From UHGV virus genome UHGV-0121576: DNA of 41,663 nt; one strand, written 5' to 3'. The DNA comes from a virus. Shown piece after piece: positions 1,259 to 40,791 of the stretch; the first letter of the stretch is position 1; each line of letters starts with the position of its first letter. The notes beneath the pieces were generated by a model. It did no database searches. It was not told the DNA's origin and worked only from the letters and a program-made list of their open reading frames with translations. A program made the position numbers and the translations under genes.

Positions 1259-2244
1259 AACAACGCTCTCTTCTAAAAAATGCTCCGGATATTAATCGCA
1301 TTATGAGTAATAATCATCATGCACCTGAACATCAGCCGGTATCACCTATGGTTGGTGATTTAAAACGTCAACTGAGTTCATTAACCGGTAATAGCATAAC
1401 TTTGCCAGTATGCGGACGTAATGTTAACTTTAAGTTAGAGACGATCCCCGCAGATAAAGTAGAAATGGCAACAATGGTATGGCTAGGTAATGAGCGTGAT
1501 CAAGATTTATTAAATGAATCTTCTCTAGCTGATTTAATTCCATCTTTTCTAACTTCTGGGCAACAAAATCCGGCTTTCGCAAGAAAAGTGTCAGGTATTG
1601 TTGAAGTAGCTGATGGTTCTCGAAGACGTAAAGCAGCCATTATAACTGGATGCGATTATCGTGTTCTTATTGGCGATTTAGATGATGAACAAATGCAATG
1701 GTTATCGCAGATAGGCAACGACTATAGACCTATCAGCGCCTATGAAAGGGGGAAAAGATACCTGCGAAGGCTCCATGAATTTGACGGTAACGTAAAATCT
1801 TTAGCTGAAGCCGAAGGCGTGGATAGAAATATTATCAGCCGATGTATTAATACAGCCGGTTTACCTAAAGATATATTGGCAATATTTAACCATCCTGGTG
1901 AGTTATCAGCCAGAGCAGGAGACGCTCTTTTTAAAGCATATCAGGGACAGGAAGCAGCCATGAAAAATGCTGCATCTCAGTTGCTGAGGATGAAAAAATC
2001 AGGTGAAAGTTTAGATGCGCAAAGAATAATACAGGCTCTTCATGATTTCATTATTGTTGAGAAAAACAATTCACATGGAGAGAAAAGGGAAAAGAAATAT
2101 GGAGACGGTGTTGTGGCGAAATATGGGAAAAATTTCACAACATTAAAATTAGATAACAGAAAAATACCATCGCACCTAATGAGTAAAATTGAATCTATTC
2201 TTGAGGAGGCGTTTGGAAATTCTTCCGATGTAAAAAATAACTAA
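1255..2244 (+). CDS. sopB: SopB/ParB centromere-binding partition protein
   Basis: ITLPVCGR, SGNERDQ, DLIPSF, ADGSRRRKAA, GNDYRP SAYERG, HPGELSARAGDAL blocks match F SopB; translationally coupled to sopA. Confidence 0.9.
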   Translation: MKQRSLLKNAPDINRIMSNNHHAPEHQPVSPMVGDLKRQLSSLTGNSITLPVCGRNVNFKLETIPADKVEMATMVWLGNERDQDLLNESSLADLIPSFLTSGQQNPAFARKVSGIVEVADGSRRRKAAIITGCDYRVLIGDLDDEQMQWLSQIGNDYRPISAYERGKRYLRRLHEFDGNVKSLAEAEGVDRNIISRCINTAGLPKDILAIFNHPGELSARAGDALFKAYQGQEAAMKNAASQLLRMKKSGESLDAQRIIQALHDFIIVEKNNSHGEKREKKYGDGVVAKYGKNFTTLKLDNRKIPSHLMSKIESILEEAFGNSSDVKNN

Positions 2245-2261
2245 TAGCAGAAAATAGAATA

Positions 2262-2297
2262 GACCCCATCAGTTATAGATGGGGTCTTAATTTTATT
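2262..2297. terminator. Bidirectional intrinsic terminator between convergent sopB and the 95-aa membrane-protein gene
   Basis: 9-bp inverted repeat GACCCCATC (2262-2270) / GATGGGGTC (2278-2286) with 7-nt loop, followed by T-rich tract. Confidence 0.5.
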
Positions 2298-2580
2298 CAA
2301 AAAATATAAATACAAGTAAACACGCCACCACCGGCACAGCAAAATCCATCAGGCTTGCTACATCCCAAGCGCGCGGATCAAAACCGCCCCACCACGGCAT
2401 ATTCATACGCTTGCCATGCCCGAACATTTCAATCCAGCGATATTCTGCCTGGGTGTGTTCACGCGCAATGAAGAACGTACAACCAGCTATCGCCCCGTAA
2501 GCCCAGTTTCCGGTAAAAAGACCAACCAGTACCTGCGCAGCCACAGCACAAAGTGCATGAAGGAAAGGTGTTATATCCAT
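2293..2580 (-). CDS. Small hydrophobic membrane protein, function unknown
   Basis: 95-aa ORF with two hydrophobic segments (AVAAQVLVGLF, VPVVACLLVFIFF); last gene after the tail-fibre cluster. Confidence 0.45.
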   Translation of the reverse strand: MDITPFLHALCAVAAQVLVGLFTGNWAYGAIAGCTFFIAREHTQAEYRWIEMFGHGKRMNMPWWGGFDPRAWDVASLMDFAVPVVACLLVFIFFE

Positions 2581-2590
2581 TACGCCTCCT

Positions 2591-3295
2591 TTATCCGATA
2601 TCGCTTCGGGAAACGGATAACAACTTTAATTCTGACTCAAGTTCATCAACTCTTTCAGTCAGCTTCTGGATATGGTGAATCAGTGGAACAACCAGACGTT
2701 CGTACATTACACCTTCGGCAACAAGGCCATTGCTGGAAATAGCTTCCGGTGCATCATCTTCGTTAGCTGGTCGCCAGTGTACAAACTGAGGGGCAATTTC
2801 TCCTACTTCCTCGGCAATCAATCCGTAGAATCCCCAGTCACGCCTGTCATTTTCGCATTGCGACCTGTACCACACAGGGCGCATCTTGAAAATGAGATCG
2901 GCGTGCTCTGAATCTATTGTCTCTACTGAATGTTTATAGCGGATAGACGATGTTGACCGCAGAACAGACGAAATTGCGGGGTCAGGATTAAGATAAAGGT
3001 TTGCCGCCGCTGTAGTCGTGGCCAAATTCCATAAATAAAACGCTTCACGACCTGTCAGTGGATAAAAATCTCCGCCATAACGACCACTTTCCAGATCGTT
3101 CACTTCCACTTTGTTTTTCAGCTTATTATCAACTTCAGTTTTTGTGTATCTGGTGCTGATATCCTGCTTTGCACTGGTCATATCAGTCTGAAGCGTTGAT
3201 ACTTTTCCGTTAATTGAGGAAATATCTTCCTTAGTTTTACTGACATCTCCCTTTAGCGTTTTGATGTCATCAGGAATTACTGTCGATGTAGCCAT
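2591..3295 (-). CDS. Tail-fibre-associated protein with C-terminal intramolecular-chaperone-like (peptidase S74-like) motif
   Basis: C-terminus DWGFYGLIAEEVGEIAPQFVHW...GLVAEGVMYERLVVPLIHHIQKLTERVDELESELKLL resembles the autoproteolytic chaperone domain of phage fibres and spikes; N-terminal half is coiled-coil-like; motif recalled from memory. Confidence 0.45.
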   Translation of the reverse strand: MATSTVIPDDIKTLKGDVSKTKEDISSINGKVSTLQTDMTSAKQDISTRYTKTEVDNKLKNKVEVNDLESGRYGGDFYPLTGREAFYLWNLATTTAAANLYLNPDPAISSVLRSTSSIRYKHSVETIDSEHADLIFKMRPVWYRSQCENDRRDWGFYGLIAEEVGEIAPQFVHWRPANEDDAPEAISSNGLVAEGVMYERLVVPLIHHIQKLTERVDELESELKLLSVSRSDIG

Positions 3296-3304
3296 TTTTC
3301 TTCC

Positions 3305-3586
3305 TCACATCCAGCCACGAAGTTGATGCTCAACAGCAACCACGTATTCATCGAATATTGACGGTGTTTTCACATCATTAATGATGCGCACGTTTACAAA
3401 ATATCCGTCTTCCTTAACACATAGCGGCTCGCCATCTTCATTCAGTTCTCCGGTTTCTTTGTACACGTTACCTATCACATCAATGAGAACATTGTTCTGC
3501 ATTACCTCGTCATCTTCATAACCAATGCTATCCATAAAGGCCGAAAAGTCGGCCTTGTTTATGAATTTGAGGGTTAAGTCTCGCAT
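3305..3586 (-). CDS. Hypothetical protein downstream of stf (possible fibre assembly factor)
   Basis: 93-aa acidic ORF; start overlaps the stf stop; no recognisable motif. Confidence 0.4.
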   Translation of the reverse strand: MRDLTLKFINKADFSAFMDSIGYEDDEVMQNNVLIDVIGNVYKETGELNEDGEPLCVKEDGYFVNVRIINDVKTPSIFDEYVVAVEHQLRGWM

Positions 3587-5799
3587 TATATTCTTTCTCC
3601 CATTTGTGCATCTGTCAGTTCCTTATGCCAGATACGTAAATTGCGCACGTGTCCAAATAAATGCCTGTTACCTGATATTGATTGACCGCCTATATTTATT
3701 GGCCCTTCTGTATAACGTTGTCTTGTGTGTTGTGATACACCAACAGCGCCAAAGTTACCGTTTATAACAGCACGCAATTCTTTCTGCTCTGTAAACTTAA
3801 ACCCAGCAATAAACCTGCGGGTTGTCCTGTTACAGTAGGCTTTATACTCGGTCTTTGTTCCTTTTCCGTTAGTTATAATTGAGCGCGCGCCTCCAGAGGT
3901 AAAACCAAAATACATATAACTTTCATCAGCAACATCCGTTGTTGCGCCAGTTATTGACACGTTAAGAAGCCTTGCTGAACCTTCACTGTTTGGCATTTTG
4001 TCCCAGTTGATATTAACTTCCATAAGAACGCTTAACGGAGGTGTTGACCAGTTCAGTCTTATTGGCATTATTACCACGTCACTAGCCCGTGTAACTGCCA
4101 CATCTGATGTAACGATAAATGATGATGCACACGATCCTTTTTCAAATTGCGGCGTAGTAAACATTATCTGATCGCCTTTTTTGATCGCCCTTTTATCTGC
4201 TCCCATTTCAAAGCGCCCATACATGCTTTTTGCTTCTGGTGATTTATATGTAAATTCGACGCGTAACCATCCGTTAGCTTCTCTGTATATGACATGATTT
4301 ACAGCATCCCCACCAGAAAAACCTAAAACATCACCAGTTTCGCAATCTATGTAGGAACCAGCTACCAGCGTGTTGCTTGTGCCGTCATCGTTAACGAAAG
4401 ATATTCTGGGTCTTAACGTTATAATACCTTCTCCATTTATCTTCTTAACCCTACAGGACAAAGTAACAGATTCATTTGCAGCAACATCAATAACCCTACT
4501 GTATCCAGTAGATATTATCGTCGCCCTTTCAGTGGTTGATGTTTCCTTTACATCGAACAAACCATATTTAAAACCATATTCATCAACCGATGTGGTTATT
4601 TCTATATTCTTGTCGTCATAATTCCATAATGAAGGATTGTTACTATTAGTAAATGTATTTGTCCTCTGACCTTCAATTAATAAACCTTCCTTTTCAAAGC
4701 GCGGCTCGTTAATTTCTGCAAAAGCAAATGAACCTGATTTGTTTATATACGTTGCAGAAGTGGAGCGAGTGAAAGATACAACCTTCTCTGATGGAAAAGT
4801 AATAACATCATCACCGATAGTGACTTTTTTATAACCTGGGGCGAAACCAGTAATCATTTCCAGTGAATCGTTAAACGGTATCCACACATCAGGCAACGGC
4901 TGCAAAACTTGTTTATACGGCTCCGCTGCCTGGCTTGCATACTCTCTGGCTGCGTCTTCACTTGCTTTAGCTGCTGTCTGGCTTGCCGCCGATGCTTGCG
5001 CCGAGTTAGCCGCCGCAGTCTCGCTCGCCTTTGCGTTGGTTTCACTGGTTTTTGCAGCTTTTTGACTGTTTGCTGATGCAGTGGCAGAAGCAGCCGCCGC
5101 ACTTGCAGAACCAGCTGCGGCACTCTCGCTTTCAGCTGCTGCATCCTGACTGCTTTTCGCCGCAGTTTCGCTGGCTTTGGCATTCGTTTCGCTGGTCTTC
5201 GCTGCCGTCTGGCTGGACTTTGCGTTGGTTTCGCTCGTCTTTGCGGCTGTCTCGCTGTTTTTCGCGTTGGTTTCTGATTTTTTGGCTGCTGTCGCGGAGT
5301 TTGCCGATGCAGTCTGCGAGGTCGCTGCCGCCTGTGCGCTGTTAGCTGCATTCGTTTCTGAGGTTTTCGCCGCGTTCTTCGATGAAGCCGCTGCAGTTTC
5401 GGATTTCTTTGCCGCCGCTGCGCTCTGAGAGGCGGCTTCGGCGTTGCGTGCCGCTTCTTCCACCATTGCCTCAAAACGGCGCAATGCCTCCGGCATGACA
5501 TCATCTTCCGTCATGGCACCGAGAAAATCATTCAGCGTACCTGGTCTGGAACCTTCATAGACGGTAATGGTCCCGGCATGTGAAGGCGGAAAACCTTCAA
5601 CCAGCAGGGTGACGCTGTACTGGCCATACTCAACATCCATGCTGTAACGTCCGGCTTCATCCGGATTTTCAGAAGCCACCGTGTTCACCAGTACCGTGGT
5701 GCTGTTACGCTTTGCCTTCAGTTGAATAGTGCAGTTCTGTATTGGTTTTCCCGCACCATCTTTCAGCACACCTGAGATTTTTACTGCTGCCATATCCAC
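3586..5799 (-). CDS. stf: Side tail fibre protein
   Basis: N-terminus VKISGVLKDGAGKPIQNCTIQLKAKRNSTT...GRYSMDVEYGQYSV matches lambda Stf; long Ala/Ser/Thr collagen-like repeat region; C-terminal 400 aa unlike lambda. Confidence 0.85.
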   Translation of the reverse strand: MDMAAVKISGVLKDGAGKPIQNCTIQLKAKRNSTTVLVNTVASENPDEAGRYSMDVEYGQYSVTLLVEGFPPSHAGTITVYEGSRPGTLNDFLGAMTEDDVMPEALRRFEAMVEEAARNAEAASQSAAAAKKSETAAASSKNAAKTSETNAANSAQAAATSQTASANSATAAKKSETNAKNSETAAKTSETNAKSSQTAAKTSETNAKASETAAKSSQDAAAESESAAAGSASAAAASATASANSQKAAKTSETNAKASETAAANSAQASAASQTAAKASEDAAREYASQAAEPYKQVLQPLPDVWIPFNDSLEMITGFAPGYKKVTIGDDVITFPSEKVVSFTRSTSATYINKSGSFAFAEINEPRFEKEGLLIEGQRTNTFTNSNNPSLWNYDDKNIEITTSVDEYGFKYGLFDVKETSTTERATIISTGYSRVIDVAANESVTLSCRVKKINGEGIITLRPRISFVNDDGTSNTLVAGSYIDCETGDVLGFSGGDAVNHVIYREANGWLRVEFTYKSPEAKSMYGRFEMGADKRAIKKGDQIMFTTPQFEKGSCASSFIVTSDVAVTRASDVVIMPIRLNWSTPPLSVLMEVNINWDKMPNSEGSARLLNVSITGATTDVADESYMYFGFTSGGARSIITNGKGTKTEYKAYCNRTTRRFIAGFKFTEQKELRAVINGNFGAVGVSQHTRQRYTEGPINIGGQSISGNRHLFGHVRNLRIWHKELTDAQMGERI
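4930..5470 (-). repeat. Intragenic tandem repeats in stf encoding a collagen-like AAKTSETNAK-type motif
   Basis: Visibly periodic DNA (gcggtctcgctggctttggcattcgtttcgctggtcttcgc...) and repeated peptide units; produces long spurious ORFs in other frames. Confidence 0.6.
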
Positions 5800-21092: not shown

Positions 21093-24773
<3,681 letters not shown>

Positions 24774-24799
<26 letters not shown>

Positions 24800-25319
24800 T
24801 CAGCAACCCCGGTATCAGTTCATCCAGCGCGGCTGCTTTGTTCATGGCTTTGATGATATCCCGTTTCAGGAAATCAATATGCCGGTTATCCAGCTCAGGA
24901 AAACGTCGCTGCACCGACAGAGGAATACCGTCGAGAATACTGGATATTTCCCTTGCTATACGCGACAGCACGAAAGTACAGAATGCGGTTTCCACCACTT
25001 CAGCCGATTCTTTGGCATTTTTCAGTTCTTGCGCCGTCGCCTGAGCACGAGTCAGGCGATGGCGCTCAAATTCAAGTGTTCCGGGGTGAAGATCTGCCTC
25101 GCTGGCTAGCCGTAATTCTTCAACCTCCCGGCGCAGCTTTTCGTTCTCAATTTCAGCATCCCTTTCGGCATACCATTTTATGACGGCGGCAGAGTCATAA
25201 AGCACCTCATTACCCTTTCCACCGCCTCGCAGAACGGGCATTCCCTGCTCCTGCCAGTTCTGAATGGTACGGATACTCGCACCGAAAATGTCAGCCAGCT
25301 GCTTTTTGTTGACTTCCAT
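24774..25319 (-). CDS. Nu1: Terminase small subunit Nu1
   Basis: MEVNKKQLADIFGASIRTIQNWQEQGMPVLRGGGKGNEVLYDSAAVIKWYAERD matches lambda Nu1 almost residue for residue as recalled. Confidence 0.9.
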
Positions 25320-25324
25320 TGTTC

Positions 25325-25520
25325 ATTCCACGGACAAAAACAGAGAAAGGAAACGACAGAGGCCAAAAGGCCTGTTTTCAGCACCTGTCGTTTCCTTTCT
25401 TTTCAGGGGGTGTTTTAAATAAAAACATTAAGTTACGGAGAAGAAGAACGGAAACGCCTTAAACCGGAAAATTTTCATAAATAGCGAAAACCCGCGCGCC
25501 TTCCGCCCCGTAGCCTGCCG
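25325..25520 (-). other. cos site in joined (uncut) form: cosB-like R-site/IHF region and cosN-equivalent (25497-25508)
   Basis: Reverse complement of 25380-25500 aligns with the lambda left-end sequence (CGCGGGTTTTCGCTATTTATGAAAATTTTCCGGTTTAAGGCGTTTCCGTTCTTCTTC...); the 12-nt overhang-equivalent reads GGGCGGAAGGCG. Confidence 0.7.
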
Positions 25521-25580
25521 GATCGCCGGAAAGGACCCGCAAAGGTGAGAATAATTATCACTTGCATTAATATCCAGCTT

Positions 25581-25749
25581 CTTCCACCATCGCACCGGAC
25601 GGGCGACTATGAGGGACAAAACCGCGCACCATAAACGCGGTAAAAACCCGGTGTGCATCGTTTTTGATTATTTCCGCACACTCGCGCAGAGGAGTTCCCC
25701 GTCGGGCTACGGTCATGGTTAATGCGGAAATACGGCGACGATGCAGCGC
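25581..25749. repeat. Direct repeat copy A (169 bp; last 113 bp identical to copy B)
   Basis: Seen directly: 25637-25749 is identical to 26587-26699; the 5-prime 56 bp are about 80 percent identical. Confidence 0.9.
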
Positions 25750-25869
25750 ATGATGTGTCAGGCTTGAATACCTTTATCCGTTAAAAGGGATATCAGTTAA
25801 GTTATCCCGTGCAGGGTATAAGCCATTATCAAAGCCACTCAGTAGCGAATGGCTTTTGTAATGGACTAT

Positions 25870-26466
25870 TTAATTAGTGATGCTGCGTGGCTTCATACAA
25901 ATTTCAGAAATATGATTCTTTTCGTCCAAATGATGCTGGACATCATTTTTATCATCACTCAACAACTCTGCTGTTAATACAATCCCTGCTGTCTCAGATT
26001 TCCAGGAAATGCTGATATCCTGATCATCTGCATCAACATCATATTTTATCGAGTAAGGACTAAAGCTACGTCCAACGAACGCATCATTTACCAGTACACG
26101 CCCACCCTGTCTGACCTGAAAGTCAACGCGCCCTGAAAGCTGATTTGCTGTTACAAGCAATGCCTTTTTTCTTTTTGTTTTATTGCTCATTGCCACCAAC
26201 TGTTCAGCCATCTCTCTTGTCACACTACCAGAAACTCTTTCTTGAATTTTCACAGAAAATTTTCTGGATGTAGTAGCATCGACATTAAAAAATCTGGATG
26301 TCATCAGGCAGTTATTAACAATTGGCATCAGCTCACTTACGATTGTAAAAAATTCCCGGTAAAGCTCATTTTGCTTTTCAACACACAGCTTTCCACAATC
26401 GTCCAGCTTACGCTCAAGAGCACTTAATCTTTCCATTATTGAATTAATTTTTTGCAACTCTTTCAT
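25870..26466 (-). CDS. Hypothetical 198-aa protein (AT-rich cargo gene, N-terminal coiled-coil), function unknown
   Basis: ORF from ATG with AGGAGG RBS (minus strand GTCAGGAGGTTTTGATGAAAGAG); codon usage is AT-rich against GC-rich flanks; the upstream in-frame 87 codons cross the repeat and palindrome and are rejected. Confidence 0.55.
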   Translation of the reverse strand: MKELQKINSIMERLSALERKLDDCGKLCVEKQNELYREFFTIVSELMPIVNNCLMTSRFFNVDATTSRKFSVKIQERVSGSVTREMAEQLVAMSNKTKRKKALLVTANQLSGRVDFQVRQGGRVLVNDAFVGRSFSPYSIKYDVDADDQDISISWKSETAGIVLTAELLSDDKNDVQHHLDEKNHISEICMKPRSITN

Positions 26467-26489
26467 CAAAACCTCCTGACAAAGATACC

Positions 26490-26507
26490 GTGCGACCACG
26501 GTCGCAC
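26490..26507. promoter_or_regulatory. sopC-like centromere palindrome GTGCGACCACGGTCGCAC (site 1)
   Basis: 8-bp inverted arms around a central AC; core GACCACGGTC is identical to the F sopC repeat core as recalled. Confidence 0.6.
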
Positions 26508-26530
26508 GCTCCTGAATACATGCCCTGTTT

Positions 26531-26699
26531 CTTCCACCCTCGCACAGGACTGGCGAGCATGAGGGACAAACCCGCGAATCATTAGCGCGGTAAAAACCCG
26601 GTGTGCATCGTTTTTGATTATTTCCGCACACTCGCGCAGAGGAGTTCCCCGTCGGGCTACGGTCATGGTTAATGCGGAAATACGGCGACGATGCAGCGC
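26531..26699. repeat. Direct repeat copy B (169 bp), bracketed by palindrome sites 1 and 2
   Basis: See copy A; exactly 950 bp offset. Confidence 0.9.
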
Positions 26700-26709
26700 G
26701 GTATTTAAT

Positions 26710-26727
26710 GTGCGACCACGGTCGCAC
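26710..26727. promoter_or_regulatory. sopC-like centromere palindrome GTGCGACCACGGTCGCAC (site 2)
   Basis: Identical to site 1, 220 bp away, same orientation. Confidence 0.6.
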
Positions 26728-26746
26728 ACGAGAAACAAAGAGATTT

Positions 26747-27058
26747 TTATGCTACAGAGGAACAAGCTGGCGGGTAATTCAGCGTAGTGAATACCGGCAT
26801 CTCCATCTTGTATGCGTAATGATACTCAGCAGTTGCTCCAGCAGACGCTTTCCAGCCAGGAAGCATCAAAATAGCATCAGCACAACGAAGCATTGCAAAG
26901 CAAATATCCATGTATTCACGTTGTGTCAGACCATTAGGCAAAGTGGCTGGATTCAAGACAGAGTGACCATGTCGTGACAAACGATCTGCCTCTTTATTAA
27001 AGGCGTCACGATTAAAGTTCTCATATCCAGTCATTGGCCCGGCAATATAAATTTTCAT
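26747..27058 (-). CDS. DUF4406-like protein (nucleoside 2-deoxyribosyltransferase-like fold), function unknown
   Basis: N-terminal MKIYIAGPMTG...NF motif typical of this family as recalled; sits between Rz and the cargo gene. Confidence 0.55.
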   Translation of the reverse strand: MKIYIAGPMTGYENFNRDAFNKEADRLSRHGHSVLNPATLPNGLTQREYMDICFAMLRCADAILMLPGWKASAGATAEYHYAYKMEMPVFTTLNYPPACSSVA

Positions 27059-27099
27059 TCACTATCCAACAAATTGAGTTCGTTTTTGATACAGAGGGA

Positions 27100-27558
27100 T
27101 TAATTCAGGCATTGCGTCTTGATGTATTCCTGCAAGTAGTTAACCTGCGCAGTTATCCTGTCGATCCCACTTCGGAGACGGTAATAATTGAGTTCAGCAT
27201 CTGCTGTAAGTCTTGGGCTTTCTCCATTGCCCATGCCGCTGGCTCCGGTCGTTGACTTTGCACAGGTGGCGGCGACTTGCAGGCGCTTACGCCCAGCAGA
27301 AACATCAGCACGGAGACTTTCGATAGTCGCGTTAGCATCAGCAAGCTCCTTCGTGTATTTTGCATCGAGCGCAGCAACATCACGCTGACGCTGCTGCATG
27401 TCAGCGATGGTGGCGGTCGCCTGCTTCAGCTCACTGACTTTTTTATCACGCTGTTCTTTGTAGGCGATGGCGTTATCACGGTAATGATTAACAGCCCACG
27501 ACAGGCAGACGATGATGCAGATAACCAGTGCGGAGATAATTGCGGTTACTCTGCTCAT
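27100..27558 (-). CDS. Rz: Spanin inner-membrane subunit Rz
   Basis: From internal Met [31 protein letters not shown] matches lambda Rz; start overlaps the endolysin stop. Confidence 0.85.
27153..27338 (-). CDS. Rz1: Spanin outer-membrane lipoprotein Rz1, embedded in the +1 frame of Rz
   Basis: Lipobox LLGVSAC followed by Pro-rich [16 protein letters not shown], entirely inside Rz. Confidence 0.7.
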
Positions 27559-28055
27559 TGCTGCCCCCACAAACAGACTTCACGCTCAATCTCACGGCGA
27601 GTCATCAGCCCTTTCCATTGCTTACCGCCAGCATATGTCCAGCGACGTAGTTGATCACATGCACCTTTGATATCGCCCTGGTTGATTTTGCGAAGAAGTG
27701 TCGATGTTCTGAAATTGCCTGCACCCACGTTGTAAACGAACGAGTAAAGAGCACCACGCGTTGTTTCCGGTATATCGACTTTGATGTACGGGTTAATTTG
27801 TCTGGCGACAGTAGCAAGGTCTTTATTCAGGAGAGCTTTGCATTCTGCTTCGGTATACGTTTTACCGAGCATAATGTCTTTTCCTGTATGCCCGTAACAT
27901 ACAGTCCATACACCAACGATGTCTTTGTAGGGGTTATGTCTCACACCTTCCAGACCATCGTTGCCGCTCGGACCAGAGATGAGCACAGATGCTATGGCAA
28001 TAGCCCCGCCACCAATAGCAGTTGCGACAGCTTTGCGTAATGATGACTGCATCAT
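27555..28055 (-). CDS. R: SAR (signal-anchor-release) endolysin, T4-lysozyme-like (GH24)
   Basis: N-terminal Gly/Ala-rich SAR segment [21 protein letters not shown] then [25 protein letters not shown]; matches phage 21-type endolysin as recalled. Confidence 0.85.
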
Positions 28056-28324
28056 ATTTCCTTCGGTGCTCTCTTTCCCAATTCACCAATAACCATCGCC
28101 GTGGCGGAAATATTATTGGCATCAGTTTTATCCAATATGTCCTGCAATATCTTCGTGCGCTTCATCTGCTCGCGTTTATTGAGCCGGTATGTAAGTACAC
28201 CGAGGATAATGCTGAACGCGACACCGATAATGAAGCCCCAATCCTGCAATGACAGGCTGGCAAAGAACGCAGTAAGACCAGCACTACCATAAGATGCGCT
28301 GCTGTATCGTTCATCCATCTTCAT
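28052..28324 (-). CDS. Holin (class II / pinholin-like) with MKM dual-start motif
   Basis: 90 aa, two transmembrane segments, charged C-terminus, immediately upstream of and overlapping the SAR endolysin gene. Confidence 0.65.
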
Positions 28325-28419: not shown

Positions 28420-29541
28420 TTACTCAAATAACTTTTTCACTTCATCAACTGTCTGAAGATAACGTTCACCCTCAATCTCAATACCGATTGCCTGACGACC
28501 TAACTTCAGCGCGGCTTTAATAGTAGAGCCTGATCCCATAAAGAAATCGGCAACGATATCTCCGGGGCGGGAACTACTTTTTATAATATGTTCCATCATC
28601 GCTGCAGGTTTTTCACATGGGTGCTTGCCAGGATAATATTGCACAGGAGGAAACTCCCATACATCGGTATAAGGTACATCAGCAGTAACATGAAATGGGC
28701 GGCGCAAATTTTCATACTGAGCCTTCAAATCATCATACTGCTTCTTTACTTCCTCATAACGCAATTTCAGATCGCTATAACGCTTTTCATGTTCTGAATA
28801 ATCAACATTAAAAGGATATGGACACGGGACACCGAGTGAATCTGCCTTCCTGCGAAATAATTCGCATAGTTTATTAAAATCACTTAATGATGGAAGCCGC
28901 CACTGCGAATAAGAAAACCAGTGCGAACACATCTGCTTTCCTGTTGCTGAATTAATGTCTGCGGCTGATATATCTAACTGACGGCGAGCCAGCGAAAAAG
29001 CATCAATTAGTGGAGAAAAAATATTTTTTCTTAAATCTGCACATTTTGAAGCATAACCTGACTGACCTTTAGCATAACCTGACGCGCCGTAATGCTCTGC
29101 AAATAATATTCTTTCAGTGGCAGGAAAATAAGCCCTTAAACTTTCTTTATGACAACCGCGCCACATACCACTGGGTTTAGCCCAAATGATAAGGTTCAGA
29201 ACATTGAAACGGTCGCGAGTTAATAATTCAATTTTTGACGCAAGGCGAGAGCCGGTAAACATATACAGGCTGCCATTAGGGGCCAATATCCGCCAAAATT
29301 CTGCCAAAAATTCATCAATCCACCCCAAAAAGTCAGCATCGCTATCCCACTGGTTATCCCATGCGTTAGCCTTTACGCCGAAGTATGGTGGGTCTGTTGC
29401 AATCAAATTGACCGAGTTATCAGGGATGGTTTTGATAAATTGCAGAGAATCTGCGCAAACGAGTTGCGCGCCATGAATATTAGTGGTTTTGAACATAGCT
29501 ATTATTTTTTTGCCTGGGTAAGCTAACCCGGCGATGCGCAT
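28420..29541 (-). CDS. Orphan DNA methyltransferase (N6-adenine or N4-cytosine, beta class)
   Basis: Motif IV DPPYF near the N-terminus and motif I FFMGSGST near the C-terminus; no adjacent restriction endonuclease; true start may be the internal Met at about 29496. Confidence 0.8.
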   Translation of the reverse strand: MRIAGLAYPGKKIIAMFKTTNIHGAQLVCADSLQFIKTIPDNSVNLIATDPPYFGVKANAWDNQWDSDADFLGWIDEFLAEFWRILAPNGSLYMFTGSRLASKIELLTRDRFNVLNLIIWAKPSGMWRGCHKESLRAYFPATERILFAEHYGASGYAKGQSGYASKCADLRKNIFSPLIDAFSLARRQLDISAADINSATGKQMCSHWFSYSQWRLPSLSDFNKLCELFRRKADSLGVPCPYPFNVDYSEHEKRYSDLKLRYEEVKKQYDDLKAQYENLRRPFHVTADVPYTDVWEFPPVQYYPGKHPCEKPAAMMEHIIKSSSRPGDIVADFFMGSGSTIKAALKLGRQAIGIEIEGERYLQTVDEVKKLFE

Positions 29542-29739: not shown

Positions 29740-29757
29740 GTGCGACCGTGGTCGCAC
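29740..29757. promoter_or_regulatory. sopC-like centromere palindrome GTGCGACCGTGGTCGCAC (site 3, opposite orientation)
   Basis: Same arms as sites 1 and 2 with central GT; flanking CT and AG extend the symmetry to 22 bp. Confidence 0.6.
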
Positions 29758-30390: not shown

Positions 30391-30702
30391 ATGTTTAACG
30401 TGATAACCCACCCTGCAGCACTGGATGAACTGCTTGAACTACCAGATGATTTGCGAGGTCGCATGACCAGATTAATTGAGCGACTGGAGAAGGAAGGCAA
30501 CAAACTGAAGATGCCCCATAGCCGTGTAATAGGTGGAGGGCTTTTTGAACTACGAGTAGGGGATAAAAACATCGCAAGAACGCTGTACGCCTACGCGACT
30601 GGTAACGAAATTTATCTATTGCATGCATTTGTAAAAAAGACACAGAAAACACCGGTGAAGGCTATCGAAATCGCCAGAACTCGCCTGAAGGAGATGAACT
30701 GA
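30391..30702 (+). CDS. Type II toxin, RelE/ParE superfamily, Gp49-like (HigB-like)
   Basis: LFELRV...ARTLYAYATGNEIYLLHAFVKKTQKTP motif typical of the phage Gp49-like toxin family (named after N15 gp49) as recalled; followed by an overlapping HTH gene. Confidence 0.7.
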   Translation: MFNVITHPAALDELLELPDDLRGRMTRLIERLEKEGNKLKMPHSRVIGGGLFELRVGDKNIARTLYAYATGNEIYLLHAFVKKTQKTPVKAIEIARTRLKEMN

Positions 30703-30989
30703 TGAAAGCGAAAGGCATCCCGTTTAACGAAGTAAAAGAAAAACTTCTCAACACTCCAGAAGCCATCAAAGGATATGAAGAGGCCGATAAAGAGCTGGAG
30801 ATGGTCGAAATGTTATACGAAATGAGGGAAAGAGCAGGTTTAACGAAGTCAGCTCTGGCTGAACGAATGGGATTGCGCCCGTCAGCTATCAGCCGCCTGG
30901 AAAGCAATCCTTTAGGGGCAAGCATGAAAACTTTATCAAAATATGCCCAAGCATGCGGTGCAACGATTAATATTAATGCCGTCTATTGA
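30702..30989 (+). CDS. HTH XRE-family antitoxin (HigA-like)
   Basis: HTH LTKSALAERMGLRPSAISRLE; start overlaps the toxin stop (ATGA). Confidence 0.7.
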   Translation: MKAKGIPFNEVKEKLLNTPEAIKGYEEADKELEMVEMLYEMRERAGLTKSALAERMGLRPSAISRLESNPLGASMKTLSKYAQACGATININAVY

Positions 30990-34707: not shown

Positions 34708-35008
34708 TTTCTTGTGCGACCACGGTCGCACCCTCTCTGATTTCCAAGTAACGCTTAATCCAAAGATTTTCTATATGCTTATTACCTGGCTGATTTGATA
34801 AATACCAATCGGCAATTACAGACTGCTTATTACTATCTGGTCGTGTCCTGTAACCACAAGTTGGACACCAGATAACATATTCATTTCTTACCCCCGAATA
34901 CCTTAATTCTGGCTTCGACGGTTTCCTGAACATAACTTGTTTACAAAGGCAGAATGGCACTTCCTGCCCGATGGCGTTTGATGATTTCACTGCGCTTCTC
35001 CGCCGCAT
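34688..35008 (-). CDS. Small Cys-rich zinc-ribbon protein (possibly Lar-like)
   Basis: CLC and WCPTCG pairs; overlaps the end of the upstream ORF, so the start is uncertain. Confidence 0.35.
   Translation of the reverse strand: MRRRSAVKSSNAIGQEVPFCLCKQVMFRKPSKPELRYSGVRNEYVIWCPTCGYRTRPDSNKQSVIADWYLSNQPGNKHIENLWIKRYLEIREGATVVAQENENNAI
34714..34731. promoter_or_regulatory. sopC-like centromere palindrome GTGCGACCACGGTCGCAC (site 4)
   Basis: Identical to sites 1 and 2; lies between the Q-like/zinc-ribbon genes and the downstream operon. Confidence 0.6.
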
Positions 35009-36795: not shown

Positions 36796-39700
36796 ATGAC
36801 ATTAAACGATTTCTATGCGGATCGCTTTGGCAGCGATCCGTTCTCGCTAATTGAAGCAGCACGGGATGAACTAACCGAGCTGGCACAGATGGCTGGTATC
36901 AACTGGTCTGCCTGTTCCGACAACATCCAACTCAACCCTCGCGGGGGTGTTGAGCGTTACTCTTCATACAATAAAACATCCCCAGAAGCTCTCGAAAAGA
37001 GCCTCAAAGGACGCGTAGAAATTTACTCCCGGCTGGAACACAGCAAAGGGATTGATTACCCGTTCATTAACTTCGTCCATAAAGGCAGCGATGCTGGCTC
37101 ATGGAGCGGTTTCTCCTTCCTGTTTTCTGAATATCGCCGTGAGCAACAACGGAATAATGCGACCGTGGTCGCACAACCGGAAGAAGAACGGGCAAGAATA
37201 GAACGTCAGGCCGAAGCACGTCGTCGCCGTGAAGAACAAAAACGAATTAATGACCTGAAAAACAACCAAATGGACCATGAACGTTTGCTGGGATGGCTGG
37301 CATTCCACAGTGCTTGGGAACATGCTCCTGCAGAAGACGGCTCATGGCCATATGCGATTAAAAAAGGTATTCGTGACGTTTTTAATTCGTGTGATGTGCG
37401 TCGCGTGACCAGTCACGACAGCGCAAAATGGAGCAGGGGGCCAACCACGTATATGGCTATCCCTCTGGCTCACCTGGACGGTCGTTACGATGGTCGTATT
37501 GTTGGTTGGCAGCGAATCGACAAACAAGGTGGAAAATACCAGACCAGCGCCGTAACCAGCGGCGATTTCGTCGGTGCCTGCTTTGTTATCGGTGAGCTGA
37601 AAGGGGCGCAAAACATCGCTGTTACAGAAGGTTTTGCTACTGGTGCATCCATCTGGCTTGCCACGAAAAAAGATAAACGCTTTGACGCTGTGGTTGTCGC
37701 TGTATCCGCTAACAACATGGTTCATGTTGTGGAACAACTGGTAAACATGTACCCGGCGGCAAAAATCACCTGCGCACTGGATAATGACCGGAAATCAGCT
37801 ACAGAAGGAAAAGGGAATACCGGCCTGCGGACTGGCTATGAAATCTTATCGAAATTCAACGATGTCCGCTGCGTCTATCCAACTTTTGAAGACGATCCGC
37901 AAATGGAGTGCAGTGACTTCAACGACCTGCACAAACTACGTGGACTTCGTGAAACAGCACGTCAACTGTTTGCAACTGCAAACCGCCTGAAAACTGGCAC
38001 TGATTTGCTATCTCTGACGCTCAACCGCCTGAAGACAATTAAGCGGGATAACCGTCGTACTTTTGCCAAAGAGCTGCTGAGAGCAGTGGATATTGGCATG
38101 CTAACCTGTCCGGTTCCTAACAGTCCGTCAGACTTATTTAACATGTTCTGCATCGTCCTGCGTGAAATTGGGCTGGAAAATATCTATCGCGCTACGGTAA
38201 AAGACCACATTGCCCGTCGCCTGAATAAAAAGTGCCGTATTGCCCAGGCTCCGCGCTCATTCAGCGAACGAATAACTGATCCCAATAAACGTCCTCAACA
38301 TATCACCTATAAGCGTTTTGAAACTTCGGTAATGACCGATGACGTCCTGAAGTATGTGCAATCACTACAGGGGATAGTCATCGTTCGTGCTGGTATGGGT
38401 TCCGGCAAATCTACTGGATTGTTACGACCTTTAATGCATAGCTCAGAACGTGGTATCTCTGTTGCTCACCGTGTTTCCCTTATTGGTGGCCTGTGGGAAA
38501 TGATGACAGAAGGAAAAGGTGTAAAAGCCGATATCCTGCACTATCAGGACCCTGGCTATCAGGAAATGGCTCCATACGCCAGTAAACTGACCATCTGCAT
38601 AAACTCGATTGTTAAAAACTGCTGGCAACCATTGATGCGCCAGCACGACTATTTTGGCTTTGACGAGGCCACGCAAGGGCTACGTGCCGTTCTTTCCGGT
38701 CGGGCTATGGAAAACCCGGTGGCTGTATTCAATACGTTAATTGACGCGCTGGCCAGAACGGAACAACACCCAATAATGGTGGATGCTGATGCGAACGATC
38801 TGCTGGTTGACCTGGCTGAACTGGCTATGAAACGCCGTGAAGAACTAGGTTTACCGGCATGGCTGCAGATCCACGTAATTGAATTACCTGTTGATGTTCG
38901 CAACCGCGAAACAGGTGAGCCAATCCGGGTTTTTTATACAGAAAAAGATCGCATTATGACCGAGGTGGTGAAAGCTGTATCGAATGGCGAAAAAATCATG
39001 TTGGCCACCGACAGCTCCACCTTTGCAGAAGATGTGACCGCCACCCTGAGAATGCATTTTCCTGGTAAGAAATTTCTGTGTGTAAACCAGAAAAACAAAC
39101 CAGAGCCAGAAGTTGAAGCATTTACCAATCAACCGAAAAAGATGGTCAAAAAATACGACGGCCTGATTTATAGCCCGTCTATTTCATCCGGTGTGTCGAT
39201 TGAGCAAAAACATTTTGACCGTCATTTCGGCATGTTCTGTGGTGAAGTTGTACCCAGCGACGCAGTGCAAATGCTACGCCGCGACCGTACAGCAAAAGAA
39301 TTTATTATCGGCTTTGATAAAGCTCGCGCAAAACGTGAAACTGACCCGCAAAAAATAGAACGAGCATTCGCCCAGGCATTGCTTGCTACCGCAGGCATGA
39401 ACGGTGAACTGACGGATGTCGTTTTCGATGGCGACCGTATATCAATGGGGGTGGCCAATACCGACTTTACCAGGATGAAAATTAAAGCAGCCGCAATTGA
39501 AGCGTCTGCGCGTAACGACTACGCCAGCAACATGATCTGCATCATGCACAGCGACGGTTATAAGGTATCGCCGCTGGCCACCGATTATGCTGCGAATGAT
39601 ATCGGTAAAGATCTGCGTAAAGAAGCGCGGGATATTGTGTGGGAACAGACACTGGATCTGCATCTCAATACAGAAACTCCACAAGAATCAGAGCGTGAAG

Positions 39701-40791
39701 AACTGCTAAAAAAACGCGCGCTGACGCTTGAAGAACAAGCAAAACTTGTCCGCTGGGATATTGAGAACGAACTGAAACTACCGGTTGAAGAAGGCACGCT
39801 GAAATTCTATTTCGATGGTGCTCGAGACAAAGTTCGCCGCTATGAAACAATGCTTTTAGATGAGGTAACAGCTCGTCGTTACGACCGGGAAGAAGCAGCC
39901 ATCAATTTTACCTACGCATACCGTCAGGCGGGACAGTGGCAATATTTTGTAGTGACCGCGATGACTCGCGAGCAGGCTGATGATGTCTTTAAAACTAAAT
40001 TCCCTGGAATAATCGACTACAAGGTAAAAGCTACTCCTACTGTTGAAGTCGGGGCGCGCGGTTTCTATGCGCTTAAATCAGCAACTCTCCGGCAGTACTT
40101 TATCGACTGCGGTATCAACCCTGAGACTATGACCGGCGAGGCGACTCAGGAGCGTCTCAAATTCGCTCGAGATAACCTCATGACAGCCGAACGCCGTGAC
40201 CTGTTGAATAACGTTCTGCACATTGGTGGTTTTATGACGCCAAAAGGGAAGCCTAAAGTGCCGGAAGCGTTGTTTAAAAACATTTGCGACTCTCTTGGCC
40301 TTAAAACAGGTAAACGTCGCGGCAGAGACGGCGATAAGCGTCCAACCTTGCGTTTTGTTGAGCCTGAATCAGCGGCATTTATGCTGGATATTCTTGTTCA
40401 GCGTCAGAAAGATGGCCTAACCCTAAAAACGCGTAAAGCCGAGAAGACAGCCATCGAAATGGATCGCGATTTGGATCTCAATATATATATGGATGATAAA
40501 ACGCGATCCACAAACGAGCAGGTTCAAAACGCCCCTCATTCAGTAATTTCTGAGGCTTTGGCCGTATTGCCGGTGGCTGTTCCTGAGTCCTGGGCGATGA
40601 GTGCGCTTTCCGGTGAGGAGCTGGCCACTATGTCATCATGGTCATCAGCCAGCATAGCTATGACGTTTGCATCTCTGTATCTCACAGAGTTCATGGATCA
40701 CTTGTCCAGCAATGAATTGCGGCGGTTACGAGAATACATTACCGGGAATAGCTCATGCAGCTACGAAGAGCAGGGAGCTTTCTATGGGTAA
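36796..40791 (+). CDS. repA: RepA replication initiator, multidomain primase-helicase
   Basis: 1331 aa (N15 RepA is about 1324 aa as recalled); P-loop GMGSGKST; position downstream of the CI-like repressor. Confidence 0.85.
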   Translation: MTLNDFYADRFGSDPFSLIEAARDELTELAQMAGINWSACSDNIQLNPRGGVERYSSYNKTSPEALEKSLKGRVEIYSRLEHSKGIDYPFINFVHKGSDAGSWSGFSFLFSEYRREQQRNNATVVAQPEEERARIERQAEARRRREEQKRINDLKNNQMDHERLLGWLAFHSAWEHAPAEDGSWPYAIKKGIRDVFNSCDVRRVTSHDSAKWSRGPTTYMAIPLAHLDGRYDGRIVGWQRIDKQGGKYQTSAVTSGDFVGACFVIGELKGAQNIAVTEGFATGASIWLATKKDKRFDAVVVAVSANNMVHVVEQLVNMYPAAKITCALDNDRKSATEGKGNTGLRTGYEILSKFNDVRCVYPTFEDDPQMECSDFNDLHKLRGLRETARQLFATANRLKTGTDLLSLTLNRLKTIKRDNRRTFAKELLRAVDIGMLTCPVPNSPSDLFNMFCIVLREIGLENIYRATVKDHIARRLNKKCRIAQAPRSFSERITDPNKRPQHITYKRFETSVMTDDVLKYVQSLQGIVIVRAGMGSGKSTGLLRPLMHSSERGISVAHRVSLIGGLWEMMTEGKGVKADILHYQDPGYQEMAPYASKLTICINSIVKNCWQPLMRQHDYFGFDEATQGLRAVLSGRAMENPVAVFNTLIDALARTEQHPIMVDADANDLLVDLAELAMKRREELGLPAWLQIHVIELPVDVRNRETGEPIRVFYTEKDRIMTEVVKAVSNGEKIMLATDSSTFAEDVTATLRMHFPGKKFLCVNQKNKPEPEVEAFTNQPKKMVKKYDGLIYSPSISSGVSIEQKHFDRHFGMFCGEVVPSDAVQMLRRDRTAKEFIIGFDKARAKRETDPQKIERAFAQALLATAGMNGELTDVVFDGDRISMGVANTDFTRMKIKAAAIEASARNDYASNMICIMHSDGYKVSPLATDYAANDIGKDLRKEARDIVWEQTLDLHLNTETPQESEREELLKKRALTLEEQAKLVRWDIENELKLPVEEGTLKFYFDGARDKVRRYETMLLDEVTARRYDREEAAINFTYAYRQAGQWQYFVVTAMTREQADDVFKTKFPGIIDYKVKATPTVEVGARGFYALKSATLRQYFIDCGINPETMTGEATQERLKFARDNLMTAERRDLLNNVLHIGGFMTPKGKPKVPEALFKNICDSLGLKTGKRRGRDGDKRPTLRFVEPESAAFMLDILVQRQKDGLTLKTRKAEKTAIEMDRDLDLNIYMDDKTRSTNEQVQNAPHSVISEALAVLPVAVPESWAMSALSGEELATMSSWSSASIAMTFASLYLTEFMDHLSSNELRRLREYITGNSSCSYEEQGAFYG
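37157..37174. promoter_or_regulatory. sopC-like centromere palindrome ATGCGACCGTGGTCGCAC (site 5, inside repA)
   Basis: 17 of 18 match to site 3; 7-bp perfect arms; lies within the repA coding sequence. Confidence 0.55.

Follow-up and report, generated by a model that had tools for sequence, protein, structure and literature searches.

The plasmid-prophage N15, the lambda bor slot and phage PhiR46_1 provide the closest described counterparts of the locus considered here. In N15, the lysis genes are followed, in this order, by gene 56, gene 57 (a DUF4406 gene), gene 58 (a C5-cytosine methylase gene overlapping gene 57), the palindrome IR4, gene 59 and cos. In lambda, the same slot is that of bor, the homologue of E. 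coli iss, and in PhiR46_1 a gene for a 286-residue protein is followed there by one for a 149-residue protein. This analysis concerns positions 25,870 to 27,058 of the virus genome UHGV-0121576, a stretch of 41,663 nucleotides called the window throughout, in which two minus-strand open reading frames (ORFs), encoding 198 and 103 residues, lie between Rz and cos, downstream of the lysis genes. Their coordinates and orientation are as given by an earlier reading of the bare sequence (the original prediction). Both ORFs are genuine though ordinary, one a gene of a known domain family and the other a decayed remnant of a narrowly distributed cassette. Overall, it is quite probable that the window is an N15-like replicon with a gp57-type enzyme gene and the stump of a cassette situated in a recombination hot spot.

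The 198-residue ORF and the 286+149 cassette

The 198-residue ORF, which the original prediction treated as a complete gene, consists of the 5′ two-thirds of a 286-residue gene, joined in another frame to the final codons of a neighbouring gene that has been deleted. Its product matches PHROG 2571 (9e-108) over profile positions 1-200 of 291 only. The earlier statement that this protein contains no recognisable motif thus stands for Pfam, NCBIfam and PADLOC, none of which returned a match, but not for PHROGs. Only two phage records encode the protein, and its 286-residue form in PhiR46_1 (XSB42772.1) covers profile positions 1-291; complete members of the family are all 276-288 residues long. 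Residues 1-195 of the window's protein are 100% identical to the PhiR46_1 protein, and the two phages are more than 99.6% identical on both sides of a clean 826-bp gap. The start of the gene is intact, with AGGAGG preceding the ATG. All homologues start with MKELQK, so that the GTG-extended ORF of 285 residues in the mechanical ORF list is not the gene.

In PhiR46_1 the segment that the window lacks has the 7-nt sequence ACGCAGC at either end, whereas the window retains a single copy, and past the junction the 3′ end of the 149-residue gene (..EYAASLIK*) is read in another frame, giving the terminus ..KPRS-ITN*. Because these features agree with the full-length relatives and with the coverage of PHROG 2571, the change is clearly a deletion in the window's lineage. 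The loss of 826 bp between the 7-nt direct repeats removed the predicted C-terminal alpha/beta domain of the 286-residue protein together with nearly all of the 149-residue gene. The opposite order of events, an ancestral 198-residue form into which 826 bp were inserted in phages of the PhiR46_1 type, draws on the formal symmetry of insertions and deletions and on nothing more. Against it, the 7-nt repeat stands at both ends in the long form, and what follows the junction is the exact 3′ end of the 149-residue gene in a different frame. With a family profile of 291 positions and full-length forms in diverged lineages (80-99% identity) and several architectures, an insertion is very hard to credit.

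The deletion allele was followed in 5,426 complete E. coli genomes, 28 of which contain the intact pair and four the deletion junction. The latter are all on plasmid-sized records of 46-75 kb, from human, chicken, wild-bird and cat isolates. The 286-residue family comprises 15 clusters in a word-indexed search, all from Escherichia, and an exhaustive HMMER search of 1.84 billion representatives added as distant members two fragments only, with 32-46% identity. One of these, a distant relative of the middle domain, occupies the other late moron slot, between Q and the holin gene, in another prophage. The G+C content of the 198-residue ORF region is 37-41%, compared with approximately 48-54% in the flanking late genes, which fits a foreign origin.

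Structure prediction, proposed with the original prediction, gave a poor AlphaFold2 model of the 286-residue protein, with a predicted local distance difference test (pLDDT) score of 54. This low-confidence model consists of N-terminal helices (residues 1-96), a beta domain (101-169), a disordered linker (171-207) and a C-terminal alpha/beta domain (208-280). The break at residue 195 falls inside the predicted linker and would remove precisely the last domain. The N-terminal helices are placed at residues 2-22, 29-56 and 79-96. The helical part of the coiled-coil N-terminus suggested earlier is accordingly reproduced by the model, whereas the coiled coil itself is plausible. For the 286-residue protein, a PDB profile search, Pfam, NCBIfam and PADLOC gave nothing, and a scan of PADLOC-DB 2.0 for defence-system components returned chance-level matches only (E 0.01 and 0.049).

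The 149-residue partner belongs to PHROG 3054 and contains, by inspection, two predicted transmembrane segments. A compact pair of one soluble and one two-transmembrane protein in a prophage accessory slot, which has moved between plasmid-prophages and chromosomal prophages, could form an undescribed exclusion or abortive-infection module, composed of a soluble sensor and a membrane effector. The occurrence of the 149-residue gene alone in approximately 30 complete E. coli genomes may be added in its favour, and the window would then keep a partly functional fragment of the sensor. This idea appears rather unlikely.

The preferred interpretation is that the cassette has probably lost its function in the window and that its stump is non-functional. 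Several observations weigh against it. The stump retains a strong ribosome-binding site and two predicted domains, and may therefore keep a residual or altered function. The deletion allele is at least not strongly counter-selected, since it is found in four genomes from different hosts. Moreover, the domain boundaries used to describe the loss are tentative because of the low pLDDT of the model.

The 103-residue DUF4406 protein

The second ORF is an intact N15 gene-57 homologue and a conserved backbone gene of N15-like phages. Its DUF4406-like assignment by the original prediction is borne out over the whole domain, with a match to Pfam PF14359 (DUF4406) at 3.7e-34 and 117.4 bits (cut-off 22) that places residues 1-90 on profile positions 1-90 of 91. 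The protein also matches PHROG 355 (3e-45) and is 83% identical to N15 gp57 (NP_046953.1) over 98 residues. Its close relatives are all 103 residues long.

The AlphaFold2 model of this protein, built on 35 homologues, is confident (pLDDT 94). In a Foldseek search against the PDB, the top 28 structures were all nucleoside 2-deoxyribosyltransferases (NDTs), MilB or DNPH1 (or 1t1j); their probability was 1.00, and the query template-modelling scores (TM-scores) were 0.64-0.76. The best solved-structure matches were NDTs, the cytidine monophosphate (CMP) N-glycosidases MilB/BcmB and the deoxynucleoside monophosphate (dNMP) N-glycosidase DNPH1/Rcl. Residues Y4, G7, P8, S72, G74, A75 and E78 are invariant among the 35 homologues. 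Profile alignments to the trypanosomatid NDTs 2a0k and 6qai place the IYIAGP loop on IYIAGP and E78 on the Glu of the GTAFE motif, presumably the catalytic residue of those enzymes; these alignments are weak alone (E 0.2-0.35) and agree with the fold match. By this model, the protein is a member of the NDT/DNPH1/MilB superfamily with a Rossmann-like fold and a catalytic-type Glu retained.

Such a protein would bind a (deoxy)nucleoside or nucleotide and cleave or exchange its N-glycosidic bond; it would be expressed with the late operon and serve, without a partner, as an enzyme of the nucleotide pool. Whether it is catalytically active as an N-glycosidic bond enzyme is evenly poised. The high E-values of the alignments to solved NDTs count against activity, as does a score for PF05014 (Nuc_deoxyrib_tr) of 20.7 bits, below the gathering cut-off of 28.8. 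At 20-55 residues shorter than the characterised NDT, DNPH1 and MilB enzymes (125-160 residues), the protein may lack parts of the active site and perhaps only bind its ligand. A literature search, finally, returned no enzymatic, expression or phenotype work on any DUF4406 protein. The gathering cut-off of PF15891 was not reached either (13.2 against 30 bits). Being short and below the PF05014 threshold, the protein is therefore a minimal superfamily member outside any characterised family.

The same shortness and sub-threshold score would suit a non-catalytic protein, a nucleotide-binding sponge or regulator that, for example, sequesters a signalling nucleotide, and so would the wide occurrence of DUF4406 in phages as a single small gene. 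Strict conservation of the Glu, of S-x-G-A and of the N-terminal Y-x-A-G-P is, in contrast, what catalysis would predict, and only a small chance is given to the sponge.

The genomic context of DUF4406 was compared in 80 viral contigs, where two settings recur. One is the late region of N15-like phages, in which the next gene varies (a Dcm methylase gene, a gp59-like gene, an HNH gene or the 286+149 cassette). The other, which is commoner, is an early region following replication genes (DnaB-like helicase, DnaC/O-like). Since no partner is fixed across these 80 loci, the DUF4406 protein most likely acts alone. A fixed three-gene module of DUF4406 and the cassette was considered and rejected, because the pair is also found behind iss where DUF4406 is missing, and DUF4406 has many different neighbours elsewhere. 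A gene for a C5-cytosine DNA methyltransferase lies downstream of the DUF4406 gene, and overlaps it, in N15 (L011, 4234-5542, genes 57/58) and in four further contigs. This overlap suggests translational coupling and, speculatively, a link to modified nucleotides.

Centromere palindromes, element E and cassette movement

The original prediction reasoned from lambdoid phages, and the comparisons give an N15-type setting. Positions 356-2244 encode a ParA-type ATPase (sopA) and a SoPB_HTH centromere-binding protein (sopB). Phage YDC107_1, a Ravinvirus according to GenBank, matches the region with 99.7-99.9% identity. On the strength of these genes, this identity and five palindromes, the window is an N15-like linear plasmid-prophage as opposed to a classical integrated prophage of the lambda type. 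The ORF of 1331 residues at 36796-40791, which matches an origin-binding-protein family weakly and holds an IR1-like site, is taken to be a RepA-like replication gene.

The palindrome in question, GTGCGACC-NN-GGTCGCAC, is 18 nt long and occurs five times in the window against approximately 0.1 expected, four times exactly and once with a single mismatch. Its core is identical to that of N15 IR1-IR4, whose oligonucleotide sequences are given in a table of PMC7205306. The five copies (Table 1) are putative N15-type SopB centromere sites, with cognate sopAB in the same replicon. The window aligns to N15 with 74% identity at 29981-28431, a segment spanning the annotated N15 late promoter region, and N15 IR3 lies just upstream of the late promoter. 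Homology across that region makes the site at 29740 the IR3 equivalent and those at 26710 and 26490 the IR4 equivalent; in the N15 record, IR4 is annotated merely as a putative terminator.

The IR4 equivalent is duplicated in the window, with its copies 220 bp apart around an inserted copy of a repeat element (E, see below). A palindrome stands directly after DUF4406 in many N15-like viral contigs. In L029, L030 and L032 (approximately 3311-3492), two such sites, 155-181 bp apart, come directly after DUF4406, with spacers unrelated to E. Since several N15-like contigs thus have paired sites after DUF4406, the doubling is not peculiar to the window, and paired IR4 may be a recurrent arrangement. 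SopB is predicted to bind the palindromes at 26710 and 26490, and its binding at IR4 could influence the expression of flanking genes. The N15 Sop system reportedly facilitates late gene expression, a finding attributed to Ravin, Rech and Lane (2008).

Element E is a non-coding repeat of approximately 187 nt. The window contains an upstream copy (E1) between the two IR4 palindromes and a downstream copy (E2) next to cos. The relatives L007-L010 have no E1 segment at this position; in L008, the element that follows the 3′ end of the cassette shares 94.8% identity with E1. Altogether, 424 phage records contain E, among them those of Shiga-toxin (Stx) phages and lambda-like phages, and 53 distinct copies align with sharp ends and unrelated flanks. 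The bor gene of HK630 has an annotated upstream promoter, and the 5′ part of E overlaps it. Several identities for E were tried and rejected. A small protein gene does not fit, since the ATG of the sole ORF is unconserved and 1-nt indels shift the frame, and a bor promoter does not fit this window, whose copies lack conservation of the -10 hexamer. The small RNAs (sRNAs) AgvB and AsxR, whose place is 3′ of PR′ in the interval from Q to the lysis genes, and other Rfam families were set aside on the Rfam scans. These scans covered the whole window at gathering thresholds and the segment 25300-27200 with permissive E-values; neither they nor a search for tRNAs returned anything meaningful.

RNAalifold predicts for E a long bipartite hairpin and a 3′ stem. 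Pair counting found 98.1% of cells paired, with five pairs (21 cells) changed on both sides; none of 500 shuffles reached the observed values, and controls with slid partners gave 36-51% pairing. These covariation statistics are supportive and short of conclusive, because the copies are related to one another and were retrieved with a pattern in which 20 positions of one arm were fixed. On the late-sense strand, U-A and U-G pairs replace each other at many positions; the other strand would have mismatches there, a pattern in favour of an RNA with the sense of the late genes. The centre of E is, by inspection, a GC-rich hairpin followed by a U-run, flagged also by the terminator scan; in other phages it is replaced by unrelated sequence still able to form a hairpin. 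The folding stability of a single copy is indistinguishable from that of shuffles on both strands (z -0.95 and -0.47), so that the structural signal comes from the comparative analysis only. Tentatively, E may be a structured RNA, so far undescribed, that belongs to the late operons of lambdoid phages and occurs in hundreds of them, lambda among them. It may at the same time be a portable homology arm by which cassettes such as the 286+149 pair pass between plasmid-prophages and integrated prophages and are later lost.

The arrangement of these elements differs among relatives. In L007-L010 (type a), the order is DUF4406, palindrome, 280-residue gene, 149-residue gene, E, palindrome and cos, the second palindrome being found in L008 and L009. 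PhiR46_1, L015 and the chromosomal L213 (type b) have DUF4406, palindrome, E1, palindrome, 286-residue gene, 149-residue gene, E2 and cos; the first palindrome of L015 was not matched by the palindrome scan. The window and YDC107_1 (type c) are type b with the 826-bp deletion. In the chromosomal lambdoid prophage L214 (type d), Rz is followed by an antisense iss, E, palindrome, a 288-residue gene, the 149-residue gene, IS5 and E. The last arrangement (type e, L017 1380-1700, IMGVR_UViG_2778261179_000007) contains no cassette gene, only DUF4406, palindrome, E and cos. Its single E is a hybrid with an E1-like 5′ end and an E2-like 3′ end, the product expected from an E1 x E2 crossover.

The cassette is most likely gained, exchanged and lost by recombination in which the E copies and palindromes act as homology arms. 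By comparison of these arrangements, it moves from one kind of prophage, plasmid or integrated, to the other, taking its upstream palindrome along, and it can be lost through repeat recombination. The stump in the window, with two palindromes and two E copies around it, lies in what appears to be a recombination hot spot. L214 comes from the chromosome of E. coli AR_0085 (2120-4050), where the cassette and an upstream SopB-type palindrome stand behind iss; an integrated prophage should have no use for a centromere, yet the palindrome is there. The observation on the pair behind iss and on the 149-residue gene alone covers L012 (3500-4050) as well.

Gene order, expression and relation to known systems

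The features of the late region and the remaining palindromes are collected in Table 1. The flanks of cosN resemble those of lambda cos. Between cos and Nu1, at 25344-25400, there is a 25-nt inverted repeat (84% complementary, 7-nt gap), which resembles the palindrome of the lambda cosB region; it is the source of weak microRNA-like Rfam matches. On the opposite (plus) strand, at 30391-30989, two adjoining ORFs of 103 and 95 residues correspond in size and position to a Gp49/HigB-like toxin and a helix-turn-helix (HTH) antitoxin in L008 and to genes 49/48 of N15, and are probably a toxin-antitoxin module.

Table 1. Positions of genes, repeats and palindromes in the window, in ascending order
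Feature	Position	Strand	Basis or remark
Large terminase subunit	22874-24799	minus	
Nu1	24774-25319	minus	
cosN (approximate)	25497-25508	minus	slot boundary; the end of the N15 virion record aligns with 25565-25503
E2, downstream copy	25563-25749	minus	adjoins cos
Remnant of last codons (..AASLIK*) of the deleted 149-residue gene	25866-25888	minus	comparison with L001 positions 4560-4600 and with the translated 149-residue gene
Truncated gene, 198 residues	25870-26466	minus	residues 1-195 of the 286-residue PHROG 2571 protein and three out-of-frame residues (ITN)
Deletion junction, 7-nt microhomology ACGCAGC	25882-25888	minus	comparison with PhiR46_1; junction-spanning query in E. coli genomes
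Palindrome, copy b	26490-26507		precedes the Shine-Dalgarno sequence of the 198-residue ORF by 8 nt; also flagged as a weak hairpin in the terminator scan
E1, upstream copy, between the two IR4 palindromes	26513-26699	minus	direct repeat of 25563-25749, 91% identity
Palindrome, copy a, IR4 equivalent	26710-26727		exact match; N15 IR4 in equivalent position
DUF4406 gene, 103 residues, intact	26747-27058	minus	Pfam, PHROG, N15 gp57 homology, AlphaFold2
Rz	27100-27570	minus	
Rz1, embedded in Rz	27153-27383	minus	
Lysozyme	27555-28055	minus	
Holin	28052-28324	minus	
DNA methylase	28420-29541	minus	
Palindrome, IR3 equivalent	29740-29757		
Palindrome	34714-34731		flanks similar to IR2
Palindrome	37157-37174		flanks similar to IR1; inside the 1331-residue RepA-like ORF, like IR1 in N15

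A consensus scan of the coding strand at 25300-27200 found no sigma-70-like promoter, a scan that weak promoters could escape. Given this result, and given the homology between the N15 late promoter and the sequence that precedes the methylase gene, both ORFs would be transcribed within the Q-dependent late operon, and the late expression proposed by the original prediction is plausible. The same prediction placed the two genes in a moron slot used for lysogenic conversion or host interaction. The slot is indeed a variable accessory site, in which a related prophage carries iss, but the DUF4406 gene is conserved and is not a variable moron. Nothing points to lysogenic conversion or host interaction for either gene, and searches of Pfam, PHROGs, NCBIfam and the PDB related neither of them to a known conversion gene. 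A confident match to a characterised housekeeping or structural protein did not emerge for either of them.

The possibility that both are intact moron-type genes acting like lambda bor, perhaps expressed in the lysogen, can draw on this variability, on the low G+C content of the 198-residue ORF region and on the middle-domain relative in the Q-holin slot. It is opposed by the lack of a promoter-like site upstream of either gene on the coding strand, by the truncation of the 198-residue gene and the deletion of its membrane partner, and by the backbone character of DUF4406, which elsewhere adjoins replication genes. In addition, both proteins lack a signal peptide and a lipobox, and both are unrelated to bor and iss. 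An intact pair of conversion genes is consequently improbable, and a conserved gene next to a cassette stump remains the preferred description.

These results lead to a corrected annotation, in which an N15-type plasmid-prophage contains a gp57/DUF4406 homologue and a truncated remnant in place of a candidate host-interaction gene. For DUF4406/gp57, a testable enzymatic hypothesis is now available, centred on the NDT-like fold and Glu78. Phenotype screens on the stump would probably be wasted, and the intact 286+149 pair of PhiR46_1 is the right object for them. The locus may also be regarded as a small and clear case of movement and decay of a lambdoid accessory cassette, whose boundaries are shared non-coding repeats and a duplicated centromere site, with a microhomology deletion inside and a repeat-mediated pop-out in a relative. 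The conserved non-coding element E is the most interesting by-product of the analysis and merits separate study.

Compared with the lambda bor/E. coli iss system, the window uses the same genomic slot, and in a related prophage iss is immediately upstream of the same cassette. The genes of the window differ in being non-homologous to bor and iss, late-sense and without an own promoter found; likewise, the overlap of E with the bor promoter in HK630 has no counterpart in the window copies, which are without the conserved -10 hexamer. The PhiR46_1 cassette agrees with the window in its upstream palindrome, in its ribosome-binding site and in the E repeats on either side; residues 196-286 and the partner gene are missing from the window. 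With the NDT/DNPH1/MilB superfamily, the 103-residue protein shares the Rossmann-like fold, the N-terminal Y-x-A-G-P loop and the S-x-G-x-x-x-E motif, and it differs in length, in its score below the PF05014 threshold and in an identity of only 15-23%.

N15 provides the nearest match as regards the replicon. Its gene 57 takes the same place after the lysis genes and just upstream of IR4, in the same kind of plasmid-prophage; it follows gene 56 and overlaps the gene 58 methyltransferase gene, whereas the window has neither of these neighbours. The palindromes of the window share their core and matching positions with N15 IR1-IR4, together with a cognate sopB, and depart from them in the duplicated IR4, whose two copies enclose a copy of E.

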